From IMG/VR virus record IMGVR_UViG_2609459792_000007: 64,000 nt of DNA; one strand, given 5' to 3'. Source of the stretch: a virus (taxonomy: Duplodnaviria; Heunggongvirae; Uroviricota; Caudoviricetes). Both the position numbers and the translations under genes were made by a program. Below are positions 29,979-33,459 of this stretch, in pieces. Position 1 is the first letter of the stretch. Every line of letters begins with the position of its first letter. The notes under the pieces were generated by a model. It had not been told where the DNA came from, made no database searches, and saw only the letters and a program-made list of their open reading frames with translations.

Positions 29979-30314
29979 ATGAAGGCCATCCCATTTGCGC
30001 TGTTGTTCCTTTCTTCGATCGTTGTGGCCGACACCACTGTTTATCAGTGTGAAATGTCTGTAGCCGACGTTAAGAATGGCGCTCTTACCGACGTCATAAA
30101 AGCACCATATGGAGCGATGGTCGTAGACAGCGGCGACCAGTTCTATGTTGTGCGTGACGATCGAGTGTTGTCATCCCCATATCTCACAAATCGTAATGGC
30201 AAATTAACCGGCGTCGGAGAAGACCACTTCGTATACAACAAATACAAGGGCTTCTATGGCGTTCACGCTTCTCAGCAAAGCTACCTTTTCGATGACTGCA
30301 AGGAGGTTGGATAA
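29979..30314 (+). CDS. Secreted small protein (signal peptide)
   Basis: N-terminal MKAIPFALLFLSSIVVA signal-like segment; two Cys. Confidence 0.45.
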   Translation: MKAIPFALLFLSSIVVADTTVYQCEMSVADVKNGALTDVIKAPYGAMVVDSGDQFYVVRDDRVLSSPYLTNRNGKLTGVGEDHFVYNKYKGFYGVHASQQSYLFDDCKEVG

Positions 30315-30526
30315 TGGCATTAACACTGGCAGGTCTGGAAATCGAGAAAACAAGCGGCTACTGGCGTGCTAAGGGTTTCAAGCAGCCTGGCATTCTTGAG
30401 CGTCTGGAACGTGAAGATGGGTATATCGTCCACCAGCGGCGTGAATGGCGTATGTACGATCCAGAAACAGGAAAACTGACTACAAAAGCCGGAACACTTT
30501 GGGGTCTGTTGAAGAAAATACACTAA
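30314..30526 (+). CDS. Hypothetical small protein
   Basis: 70-aa ORF overlapping previous stop. Confidence 0.35.
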   Translation: MALTLAGLEIEKTSGYWRAKGFKQPGILERLEREDGYIVHQRREWRMYDPETGKLTTKAGTLWGLLKKIH

Positions 30527-30569
30527 TAGCACCAACCACTGCGGTGAGTAGTCTACTCACCGCATTCGT

Positions 30570-31012
30570 ATCCAGCTCATTATCCACTGTAGTCAGTAAC
30601 AAAACCTTCCTACATATCTGCTAACCACTGTAGCGAGTAGACAGCCTTTCATTCGCATCAAACAACCACTATGGTGAGTATTGGAGTGAGATGTCCAGCG
30701 GGTATCCACTATGGTGAGTAAGCCTTTGCTGTTTTCAGTGGATATCCACTCGCCACAGTGGATACGCTCAAAGATGAGGGCGACAACAACCACTATAGAC
30801 AGTAAATTTTCCAAGATACCCAGTGACCACTAACCTCGCAGCCCTTGTTTCATCAGTGTTAGTGATCACTAACATTTAATTCAGTATTTGCATTCTACTG
30901 CCTACAGTGGTTATCAACAGATAACGATACTCACTATAGTGGATAGCGAATTACAGATATAAGTAAGGCTCACTACAGTGGATAGTGAGTCTTACTACTA
31001 ACTACAGTGGTT
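30570..31012. repeat. Iteron array downstream of repA (incA-like), at least 10 copies
   Basis: Repeated CCACTRTRG / CYAYAGTGG cores, e.g. ccactgtagtcagtaac, ccactatggtgagta (x2), ctcactatagtggatagcg, ctcactacagtggatagtgag; orientation switches near 30900. Confidence 0.8.
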
Positions 31013-31015
31013 GGG

Positions 31016-32071
31016 CTATTTGCGAGTCTTTGCCTTGCGCAACTCTTCGAGAAGCGCCAGTTCTTCTTTACTCAACATGACCATTTTGCCTTCTTTTTCG
31101 TCAGGCACAACGTCGATAATGTCATCTTGATTCTCATCTGGGAGGCTATATTCCGTCTCATCATTATCGATTTTTGTTGATATTTGTGCCTGGCGTAACT
31201 TTGGCCGCCTATAGTGGATGACGAAGTAGACCGAGTTTCCGCGCTTAACTTCCGTGTAATCGAGATATCCTATCTCTCGCAGCTGTTCCATAGCCTTTCT
31301 TACCGTCGCATTCTGAGTAATAGTGCGACTTGTCAGATTAAGTCTGGCGCGTAAACGGGCTAGTGATATTGGTGCCGGATCAGGCGGCAAACTTTCAATA
31401 AAAGTATAAAGCGCCTGAGCGGATTCTTTTCTTGAGAGTTCGTTTATAGCCCGGAGTTGCAGAAGAACCTTTTTGTCGAACTGGTAGAGTTCGAAAATCT
31501 TGGGATCTGCTTTCAGTTCGACCGTATCGTGCTTGACACTATATTTTGCCGTTTGCACAAGATGCGTTACGTAAAACTCATCAGAGCCTTTGCTACGGAA
31601 CGAGATGGTATTTGTGGCAATACGGCTTAGCGAACTGTCCAGGCGTTTGCGTAACTTCGCTGATGACCTGGCGGTCGGAATGCCACACAGCCTTACAAAC
31701 TCAACGAACGGCAACGTGACAGTATCGCCAACGACCTTGTGTTTGGCAAACGCGTGGATTATTCCCACCCACGTTTTAAAGTCGTTATCCATATCAAGCC
31801 GAAGGCCAGAGATCCTTATGTCTTCGTACCCTTCGGCTTTTGCCAGAGACAGCTGTTTGAGTTCAGCAGAGGCATCCATAGAGACCATTTGCCCCTTTCT
31901 TCCTCTGGATGTCGATTTCAGCGTCGGAACGAAGAGGCCCAGACGCATCAAAGCAACAGGCTGAACAGTGTTATTAGTGTTAGGAACCAACGTAACAACT
32001 TCGCCTGTCTTTTTATCTGTTTCTGAAAATGCTTCAACGATCGCTATGTTTTTATTGCCGTTTTCGCTCAT
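31016..32071 (-). CDS. repA: RepA/RepE-family iteron-binding replication initiator
   Basis: 351 aa; flanked by iteron arrays on both sides; from memory resembles RepFIB/P1-type RepA (not searched). Confidence 0.75.
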
Positions 32072-32099
32072 TCCAAATGTCTCTTGTTATTCGACGGCT

Positions 32100-32240
32100 T
32101 TGGTGGCCTTTGCTGATTACAGTGGATAGTAGCACTCATCACAGCGGTTATCCTACCGTCTATAGTGGTTTTTCTCCTCTCTATAGTGGTTGCTTTGCTC
32201 CCTATAGTGGATTGTTCGCTCTCTATAGTGGATATCGATC
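32100..32240. repeat. Iteron array upstream of repA (origin/promoter-proximal), about 5 copies
   Basis: ttacagtggatag, ctatagtggtttttc, ctatagtggttgc, ctatagtggattg, ctatagtggatat at ~21-22 bp spacing. Confidence 0.8.
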
Positions 32241-32280
32241 ATGTCTGAAGGCAGATGGCACAACGGTTTGAGGTGGGCGG

Positions 32281-32500
32281 GGATCTTATTGGGTCTTTAT
32301 GGGTCTCTTTGGTTCTCTTTGTGATCTGAATTACTGGATCGGGCCTGTGGATAAAAATCAGAGAATTTCAAGAACAGGTAACTCTACTCTTCTGTGGATA
32401 TTTAAGGACATAAGAATCATGACTAAGAGTAGAGTTTAAAATATATCTATGTATATCAGTATGTTAATGAAGAATTAAGTCATTAAGTTATCCATAAAAG
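32281..32500. other. Origin-like region: GATC cluster, DnaA boxes, AT-rich unwinding stretch
   Basis: GATC sites at 32282-32340; tgtggataa (32347-32355, perfect reverse DnaA box) and tgtggatat (32393-32401); AT-rich 32437-32500; ttatccata near 32489. Confidence 0.65.
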
Positions 32501-32504
32501 ACAA

Positions 32505-32715
32505 TGTGCTCTACTCTCTACAGTGGATATATACAGCTCTCCAGAGTGGTTGTTTTACTCTTCATAGCGGTTATTCAGCTCTCTACAGAGGTTTCTTTGC
32601 TCTCCATAGTGGATGGCAACACCCTTTCAGACCAGTAACCGCAACGGCTAGAGGCGATCGGGGATCTCTTTGGATCTTCTATTTGATCTTACTTGGGATC
32701 TCTTATTTGGATCTA
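32505..32715. repeat. Second iteron set plus second GATC cluster
   Basis: ctctacagtggatat, ctccagagtggttg, ttcatagcggttat, ctctacagaggttt, ctccatagtggatgg, then six GATC within 32655-32715. Confidence 0.7.
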
Positions 32716-32814
32716 TCCAGTGGATAACTGGGATAAGTAAAACAGGCAAATGCAGATTAAGGTATGCCTAATGAGTTATCGTAGCATCGGCCAATAACTA
32801 CTGAAAAAACGATT

Positions 32815-33459
32815 ATGGATCTAAAACGCACGCGCTGGGTTCGTCGTCTTGAGGACGGCTCCTACACTATCGAATCAAATTCCAACCTGAATAAGCAGAA
32901 GTTACTTTGTGATATCTGCGGTATAGCGGCGAAGTGCCCGATCTACGAAACCAGAATTAAACTTGATAAGGCTGGTGTGAACTTTCATTTGAATAGTTGT
33001 ATCAGGTACGTTCCATTGCTCGCATTTCGTAAACCGATCATCGGATTGGATGCGCCCTACTTCAACACACTCCGTTCAGGGGTAACGTGGCGAGATCGTT
33101 TATCACCAGACAAGCTGATTTGCCTCGTATCCGCAGACACAGGGAAAATCATCCGTTTTGGGAAAGTAGACAAGGTTTACTCAGGCCCAGTTGACGAGAT
33201 GTTGCGGAAACACAGCCGGTTTAATCACCTCTGCATGGGTGGTGAGAAAATCGAGAAGGTTGAAGAAGTGATCCGCAAATCCTACGGACACTTCCTGACC
33301 AAAGATAGCCTGCTCACTGCAATCTACATCAGACATGTAAAACGTGAGTTCGACCTTGAATACCATAGCGAAGAAGAACTGAACCTTGTCGATCCACGTC
33401 CTAAAGCTGGCGTCATAAGCATAAATGCAGCGCGTAAAAAGCCCACTGACGCGCTGTAA
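32815..33459 (+). CDS. Hypothetical protein
   Basis: 214-aa ORF beside the replicon. Confidence 0.45.
   Translation: MDLKRTRWVRRLEDGSYTIESNSNLNKQKLLCDICGIAAKCPIYETRIKLDKAGVNFHLNSCIRYVPLLAFRKPIIGLDAPYFNTLRSGVTWRDRLSPDKLICLVSADTGKIIRFGKVDKVYSGPVDEMLRKHSRFNHLCMGGEKIEKVEEVIRKSYGHFLTKDSLLTAIYIRHVKREFDLEYHSEEELNLVDPRPKAGVISINAARKKPTDAL

Follow-up and report, generated by a model that had tools for sequence, protein, structure and literature searches.

A Conserved Two-Module Layout Upstream of repA in the RepFIB/P1-Type Iteron Replicon of an SSU5-Like Phage-Plasmid

The Replicon and Its Carrier

The DNA stretch analyzed in this work, hereafter called the window, contains 64,000 nucleotides (nt) of the virus record IMGVR_UViG_2609459792_000007 (IMG/VR; Caudoviricetes). 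By homology, its segment 30530-32736 is the full extent of the plasmid-maintenance (plasmid-prophage) replicon of an SSU5-like phage-plasmid and belongs to the RepFIB/P1 iteron family. The initiator gene of this replicon, repA, lies on the minus strand (31016-32071). Upstream of repA, two modules are arranged in tandem, and each is composed, in this order, of iterons, a GC-rich spacer, a GATC cluster with a periodicity of ~10-13 bp, and a DnaA box. This two-module layout is evidently old and conserved in a RepFIB sub-clade that includes the plasmids pMT1 and pHCM2. The module distal to repA is probably the main origin of replication, and the proximal one is probably chiefly the operator of repA.

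The 2.5-kb segment at the replicon is 99.8% identical at the DNA level to pLF82 of E. coli LF82, the SSU5-like phage-plasmid also named Escherichia phage Cyrano (OV696614). The same query matched Salmonella phage SSU5 with 83% identity over 86% of its length, and the whole 736-bp upstream region matched pMT1 and pHCM2 with ~80-81% identity. Cyrano, SSU5, Yersinia pestis pMT1, and Salmonella Typhi pHCM2 share the same gene order: a gene similar to P1 cra, repA, a gene for an ASCH-domain protein, and sbcCD-like genes. In PLSDB, matches were found in 461 plasmids, mostly of ~107 kb, non-mobilizable, and typed as IncFIB (MOB-suite), with Escherichia, Enterobacter, Yersinia, Salmonella, and Citrobacter as hosts. 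Among 5,426 complete E. coli genomes, 90 (~1.7%) have an intact upstream region; it was plasmid-borne in every case and unannotated in the RefSeq records checked. The copy number of Cyrano, 5.5 per chromosome in stationary LF82 cultures (PMC9928086), is the sole measured property found for this element.

Organization of the Two Upstream Modules

Iterons were searched for on both strands of the whole window with a position-weight matrix (PWM) built from clear copies, at a cutoff of >12 bits. In total, 24 iterons were found within 30530-32618: 12 downstream of repA, 1 inside it, 6 in the proximal upstream array, and 5 in the distal upstream array. Only one match above the cutoff (15.9 bits) was found elsewhere in the 64 kb. 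The consensus built across the iterons is about TACTCTCTAYAGTGGWTA, or CTAYAGTGGWT in short. All the upstream iterons, proximal and distal, have the same orientation.

A preliminary description of this DNA, made from the sequence alone, had placed at 30540-32760 a minus-strand repA flanked by more than 20 iterons. The boundaries were about right, and both the gene and the number of iterons are confirmed; the consensus across the iterons had been proposed there as a check. The same description listed two upstream sets of ~5 iterons, each followed by a 'caacgg...ggggatct' segment and a GATC cluster, as well as one perfect and one near-perfect DnaA box and an AT-rich stretch between the sets. All these elements are present, and the segment named is included in the head-to-tail alignment of the two modules, which are 77% identical. 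The numbers, however, had to be revised: the sets contain six and five iterons, the two clusters are unequal, and three boxes with one mismatch (32393, 32488, and 32719) accompany the perfect one.

The proximal array (32109-32237, plus strand) begins 38 nt from the repA ATG and contains six copies at 21-bp spacing (32109, 32131, 32152, 32173, 32194, and 32215), the second of which is weak. By analogy, this array is presumed to be the promoter/operator of repA. It is followed by a GC-rich spacer with the 'caacgg' segment (32238-32281, plus strand), which can be aligned to its distal counterpart as well as to the corresponding spacers in P1 and F, and by a partly degenerate cluster of 13-mer-like units (32282-32340, plus strand). 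In this cluster, three GATC sites (32282, 32323, and 32337) are accompanied by three degenerate units that keep the register (GGTC at 32292 and 32302, GTTC at 32312). The module is closed by a perfect DnaA box, TGTGGATAA (TTATCCACA on the minus strand), at 32346-32354; this is the only match to TTWTNCACA in the region. The relatives carry TGTGTATAA at this position, which still fits TTATNCACA.

The distal array (32510-32618, plus strand; 16.5-28.1 bits) has five copies at 21-23 bp spacing (32510, 32533, 32554, 32575, and 32596). Its three inner copies are non-consensus variants, and the variant positions are kept in the relatives. A GC-rich spacer of 37 nt (32619-32655, plus strand; 39 nt in P1) separates this array from six GATC sites in 58 bp (32656-32713, plus strand; sites at 32656, 32663, 32673, 32685, 32697, and 32710). 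This is the densest GATC cluster in the window, where the next best has 3 sites per 70 bp and the background is 4.3 per kb. By analogy, the cluster is presumed to be a Dam/SeqA-controlled unwinding element. The units of the GATC clusters resemble the oriC 13-mer GATCTnTTnTTTT, with the best match, GATCTCTTATTTG, at 32697. A tandem pair of DnaA-box-like sequences closes the module (32719-32736, minus strand): AGTGGATAA, with one mismatch to TGTGGATAA, and CTGGGATAA, with two mismatches.

The spacer between the modules (32361-32509) has kept its length (149-152 nt) and varies in sequence. Its GC content is 22-29% in the window versus 40-44% in SSU5, pMT1, and pHCM2; thus the AT-rich stretch seen earlier is real but lineage-specific. 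A role for it as an unwinding element was considered and rejected as unlikely, since the spacer is AT-rich in this lineage alone and is the least conserved segment. Two of the one-mismatch DnaA-like boxes are located here (32393-32401 and 32488-32496). Additionally, a 12-bp inverted repeat, 32380-32392 / 32426-32438 (AACTCTACTCTT / AAGAGTAGAGTT), brackets the DnaA-like box TGTGGATAT. As a structure this repeat is unsupported: the predicted single-stranded DNA fold of the spacer is no better than that of shuffled sequences (z -0.76), and the segment is variable in the relatives. The best sigma-70-like match of the region (32467-32440, minus strand; TTAACA-16 nt-TATATT, 10/12) also falls into this spacer, faces the proximal module and repA, and is not conserved in SSU5 or pMT1.

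Age and Conservation of the Two-Module Layout

Seven members of the SSU5/pMT1/pHCM2 family (Cyrano, SSU5, pMT1, pHCM2, and Enterobacter and Citrobacter plasmids) were aligned, and both modules were found in register in all of them. Segment by segment, identity between the window and the other six members is 92-95% in the leader, 86-89% in the proximal iterons, 88-95% in the proximal GATC/DnaA block (94-95% for five members and 88% for pYUXYEH3934-1), 62-65% in the inter-module spacer, 83-86% in the distal iterons, and 73-76% in the distal GATC/DnaA block. Despite the 73-76% identity of the last segment, all six distal GATC sites are invariant in 7/7 members. The three degenerate proximal units are invariant in the same seven members. 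In a sliding comparison with SSU5 and pMT1, the 5' half of repA together with the leader and the first iterons was the best-conserved stretch (95-97%), and the leader with the first proximal iterons was the most conserved non-coding block. Both modules, conserved well above the spacer between them, appear to be under selection.

The layout is distributed far beyond this family. One genome per species was scanned with a RepA alignment, which yielded 80 species-level loci. Two upstream iteron arrays, 244-440 bp apart, were found in 40 of these loci, which represent Yersinia, Buttiauxella, Rahnella, Erwinia, Pantoea, Sodalis, Franconibacter, Cedecea, Xenorhabdus, and Morganella. GATC sites are at least as numerous in the distal as in the proximal module in all 40 loci (greater in 37, equal in 3), with means of 5.5 and 3.6, respectively. 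Moellerella pW1-b keeps the two arrays and the distal core and has no proximal GATC cluster. Both arrays and the distal core are also retained in Xenorhabdus hominickii, with 2 GATC sites left in the proximal cluster. The non-phage plasmid pPAG03 of Pantoea agglomerans has the same two complete modules.

A neighbor-joining tree of RepA, built without bootstrap, groups the two-array replicons into a single clade; three of its tips, for which the upstream sequence was too short, are labeled by default. The single-module replicons of P1, the Klebsiella type, F RepFIB, and the Pantoea LPP-1 type are located outside this clade. The duplication of the iteron-plus-GATC module, which the preliminary description could not assign to a described origin, is therefore real and is not peculiar to this element, being conserved across a RepFIB sub-clade.

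Two head-to-tail copies with 77% identity could also be read as a recent tandem duplication, or as an assembly artefact, without function. The probability of this reading is practically negligible. The same modules with the same spacing are present in Cyrano, SSU5, pMT1, pHCM2, and the Enterobacter and Citrobacter plasmids, in 90 complete E. coli genomes, and in the 40 species-level loci; moreover, the two copies carry lineage-conserved differences, which are incompatible with a recent event or an artefact. Thus the family alignment, the species survey, and the E. coli genome counts refute it.

The ends of the proximal and distal cores resemble different relatives. A cassette insertion, in which an F-like RepFIB proximal module was placed beside a resident SSU5-type origin, was considered. 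A single old duplication is preferred as the simpler explanation, because the iteron type does not differ between the arrays and because non-phage plasmids of Pantoea, Rahnella, and Erwinia have two arrays as well.

As a separate observation, the end of the distal core together with the leader of the ASCH-domain gene (32640-32815) is closer to the Klebsiella-type phage-plasmids (78-79%; locus L008, 2990-3170) than to SSU5, pMT1, and pHCM2 (71-76%). RepA and the iteron type of the Klebsiella-type elements differ from those of the window. This similarity suggests recombination at this boundary among SSU5-like elements with different replicons.

Probable Roles of the Two Modules

From the observed anatomy, homologies, and conservation pattern, we infer RepA binding, the promoter position, the firing module, and the Dam and DnaA dependence as follows. 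By analogy with P1 and RepFIB, monomers of RepA would bind the upstream iterons, and the host DnaA would bind the box or boxes at the far side of the ~60-bp GATC-containing cluster of 13-mer-like units. RepA and DnaA together would open this cluster for helicase loading, and Dam methylation and SeqA, acting at the GATC sites, would time initiation. The 12 downstream iterons would titrate RepA and handcuff the origin iterons, holding the copy number down. In the distal module (32510-32736), an origin of the P1 oriR type would be complete, and initiation most likely takes place mainly there. For the proximal module (32109-32354), located on the repA leader, the most likely primary role is that of repA promoter/operator and of an additional partner in handcuffing; its half-decayed origin core may still initiate replication as a secondary origin that depends less on Dam. 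To the assignment of the distal module as the main origin and of the proximal one chiefly as the operator we give a probability of about 0.6.

The distal module is favored as the main origin because its core is closer to the single origins of P1 and the Klebsiella type, its six GATC sites are invariant, its GATC count equals or exceeds the proximal one in 40/40 loci, and it survives in Moellerella and X. hominickii. Over 140 nt, the distal core is 74% identical to P1 oriR and 78% identical to the single origin of the Klebsiella phage-plasmids; for the proximal core, the corresponding values are 65% and 68%. The proximal module is favored as the operator because it starts 38 nt from the ATG, because non-coding conservation is highest in the leader and first iterons (95-97%), and because the P1 promoter PrepA lies in the repA-proximal iterons.

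Several observations weigh against this assignment. Within the upstream region, conservation is highest in the proximal GATC/DnaA block (94-95% for five of the six relatives, 88% for the sixth), and its degenerate units are fixed; together, these facts speak against simple decay and fit a still-functional origin or some other constraint. The proximal core has at its right end TACTGGATCGGGCCTGTGGATA, a close match to the single, functional-type origin of F RepFIB, and the only perfect DnaA box in the window belongs to the proximal module. Additionally, the promoter/terminator scan gave 7 promoter-like sites versus 4.4 expected, an uninformative excess, and no convincing repA promoter of the sigma-70 consensus was found by it in the proximal array. 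The high conservation from the 5' half of repA through the proximal module could in part reflect a recombination tract instead of selection. Overall, the proximal origin core appears to be in the course of being lost in some lineages and strongly constrained in the SSU5/pMT1/pHCM2 family.

The same core end, DnaA box, and conservation of the non-coding block speak for an alternative in which the proximal module would be the working origin, as in classical RepFIB, where the BCDD'D'' iterons beside repA are origin-associated (PMC11983097). The distal module would then be an auxiliary incompatibility and handcuffing locus that titrates SeqA and DnaA and lowers or times the copy number. This arrangement is considered clearly unlikely: three of the six proximal GATC units are lost in the window, the cluster is absent in Moellerella and has only 2 GATC sites in X. 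hominickii, with a complete distal core in every case, and it is the distal core that is the nearer homologue of the P1 and Klebsiella-type single origins.

Alternatively, both modules could be functional origins under one RepA, used in turn or jointly. For example, a Dam-rich origin open to sequestration by SeqA could serve once-per-cycle maintenance of the prophage, with a Dam-poor one available for rounds that escape sequestration, during establishment after infection or upon induction. Each module has retained iterons, a spacer, a periodic T-rich repeat cluster, and a DnaA box; each is conserved well above the inter-module spacer, whose length is constant; the layout persists in 40 species-level loci; and the copy number of Cyrano is 5.5 per chromosome (PMC9928086). 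Against joint function, the proximal cluster falls to zero in some lineages that retain the replicon. The presence of the layout in non-phage plasmids, such as Pantoea pPAG03, argues that it is not an adaptation to the phage lifestyle. Taken together, the use of two origins seems rather unlikely.

A related and equally tentative proposal is that an ancient tandem duplication of oriR gave rise to a bipartite origin across the RepFIB-like clade. In such an origin, a Dam-rich, complete initiation site would be combined with a Dam-poor copy fused to the repA operator, and the latter would still fire or would couple repA expression to the state of the origin. If true, this would be a case of a single initiator with two modes of initiation or control.

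The replicon family and the Cyrano element are known and typed, and the tandem-module architecture has apparently not been dissected. No description of the tandem modules and their asymmetry was found in the searchable literature, although the pMT1 papers of 1998, which are outside that search, might draw both repeat sets. The replicon itself is ordinary, and its value is comparative: a duplicated origin unit shows a consistent asymmetry across dozens of enterobacterial plasmid lineages, including the plague plasmid pMT1 and the typhoid plasmid pHCM2. It thus offers a natural system for asking how the tasks of origin, operator, and handcuffing are divided among iteron arrays, what number of GATC sites is required in an origin, and by which element the incompatibility and copy number of SSU5-like phage-plasmids are set. 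The last question bears on replicon typing, plasmid curing, and vector design.

RepA and the Downstream Control Array

The repA gene encodes a protein of 351 amino acids (aa), identified by its Pfam domains and RepA homology as an iteron-binding replication initiator. In the profile search that had been suggested as a check, both Pfam domains of a Rep_3 initiator (WH1 and WH2) scored above their cutoffs: Rep3_N with E 1.3e-10 and Rep3_C with E 1.3e-4. The protein is 91% identical to RepA of SSU5, 60% identical to RepA of F RepFIB (over 329 aa, E 5e-143), 53% identical to RepA of the Klebsiella SSU5-like phage-plasmids, and 47.5% identical to RepA of P1 and P7 (E 1e-71). No family was matched in the NCBIfam scan, and no match was found in the PDB sequence search at E<=0.01. 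An Rfam scan of 30300-33000 at E<=1 gave nothing, so no known antisense or regulatory RNA is indicated there.

In the Klebsiella and E. coli O169 phage-plasmids, the coding sequence of the 'RepB family' protein is annotated with 405 aa (L008, 1752-2969; L011, 1773-2987) and extends upstream over the entire iteron array of the origin. A start at an internal ATG (L008, 2849) yields 366 aa that can be aligned to the other RepA proteins; for this reason, the annotated start looks over-extended.

One iteron-like site is located inside repA (31201-31223, plus strand; 18.1 bits) and overlaps the codons of the conserved RepA motif (F)VIHYRRP (coding strand ATC CAC TAT AGG). It could be a coincidence of codon choice or an intragenic RepA site.

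Downstream of repA, the preliminary description had counted ~10 incA-like iterons. The array is real and extends over 30530-31016 with 12 iterons (19.8-29.1 bits), six per orientation: 30530, 30578, 30619, 30660, 30700, and 30784 on the minus strand and 30725, 30745, 30894, 30926, 30965, and 30994 on the plus strand. The last of these iterons abuts the stop codon of repA. In position and mixed orientation, the array is matched by the annotated incA of P1.

Three further features were noted in this array. The outermost iteron and the sequence following it form a 17-bp inverted repeat (30535-30569; ACCACTGCGGTGAGTAG / CTACTCACCGCATTCGT) just past the stop of the cra-like gene (30314-30526), and this repeat may double as the terminator hairpin of that gene. 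The iterons at 30700 (minus strand), 30725, and 30745 (both plus strand) are in a head-to-head arrangement (30702-30765; CAGTGGATATCCACT...CACAGTGGATA), and their core resembles a DnaA-box sequence (GTGGATA). As the iteron core AGTGGAT overlaps the DnaA-box core, cross-binding of iterons by DnaA is a possibility. Finally, the 88-bp gap between the downstream iteron blocks contains a perfect 16-bp palindrome, GTTAGTGATCACTAAC, centered on GATC (30858-30873, with a half-site at 30819-30834). Motifs similar to GTTAGTRAYCACTAAC were also found downstream of repA in the Klebsiella-type phage-plasmid (L008, about 1345-1400), despite its different iteron type. The count of the palindrome motif in the window is not significant on its own; the palindrome may be a binding site for a dimeric regulator.

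Comparison with Known Systems

P1 is, like the element in the window, a case in which the maintenance replicon belongs to a phage-plasmid. The GenBank annotation of P1 lists a DnaA-binding site, five Dam sites, a gap of ~39 bp, five 19-bp iterons at 21-bp spacing, and repA, and each upstream module of the window reproduces this oriR order. In P1, PrepA is annotated inside the two iterons nearest repA, and nine incA iterons of mixed orientation start from the repA stop. The distal core aligns with P1 oriR through the five Dam sites and the tandem DnaA boxes (window TTTGGATCTATCCAGTGGATAACTGGGATAAGTAAAAC, P1 ATTGGATCTATCCAGTGGATAATGTGGATAAGTGAAAA), and its DnaA pair aligns with the annotated DnaA site of P1 oriR, CCAGTGGATAATGTGGATAAGT, as well as with the origin of the Klebsiella phage-plasmid. 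P1 differs in having one module, 5+9 iterons, and an unrelated iteron sequence. Extra DnaA boxes are located between the iterons and repA in P1; unlike in P1, no DnaA boxes were seen there in the window. Classical P1 has a copy number of 1-2, below the value of 5.5 for Cyrano.

Several iteron clusters under one Rep protein are also present in RK2 oriV (5+3+1 iterons) and in R6K (alpha, beta, and gamma origins), where the extra clusters modulate the copy number or act as alternative origins. These systems differ from the window, in which a whole origin unit is repeated in tandem ~400 bp apart, and their Rep proteins are only distantly related. With respect to multi-origin plasmids of the R6K kind, the window shows the sequence potential for two origins.

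SSU5, pHCM2, and pMT1 have the same locus, with the same neighbors and two modules, and their DNA is ~80-83% identical to that of the window. The Cyrano lineage is distinguished from them by its AT-rich spacer, by a distal core end nearer to the Klebsiella/P1 type, and by DnaA boxes of the GTGGATAA type versus GTGTATAA and GTGAATAA in SSU5, pHCM2, and pMT1. A 2,450-bp fragment of pMT1 with this repA reportedly replicates autonomously, as described by Lindler and colleagues in 1998.

The window has the features by which RepFIB/P1 replicons are recognized. Next to repA, there are about five iterons spaced by 21 bp (six in this case), and a downstream array of mixed orientation starts from the repA stop. 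In the distal module (32619-32736), there are DnaA boxes, at least five GATC sites at ~10-12 bp, and a GC-rich spacer by the iterons. P1, F, and P307 have a single upstream origin module, whereas the window has two; as a variant of the same layout, this gives no reason to exclude the element from the family.

In the RepFIB replicons of P307, F, and pO157, repA likewise has an origin-associated iteron block on its upstream side and a control block on its downstream side. The former, BCDD'D'', lies next to repA, and the latter, E-K, exerts copy control and incompatibility, for which a handcuffing model was proposed (PMC11983097). The origin core of F RepFIB contains 5 GATC sites and one or more DnaA boxes, with an end motif, TACTGGATCGGGCCTnTGGATA, nearly identical to that of the window; the proximal core ends with TACTGGATCGGGCCTGTGGATAAA, which differs little from the TACTGGATCGGGCCTCTGGATATGTGGATAAA that ends the F RepFIB origin. 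Upstream of repA, F RepFIB carries a single array with a single GATC cluster, a second array being absent within 1.5 kb, and its iteron is AYAGYTTAT versus CTAYAGTGGWT in the window. The 12 downstream iterons are a further difference from RepFIB. The P1/F-type logic of a RepA origin, as initially proposed for this locus, therefore holds for the layout, and among described replicons RepFIB is its nearest relative, ahead of P1 and F-RepFIA.

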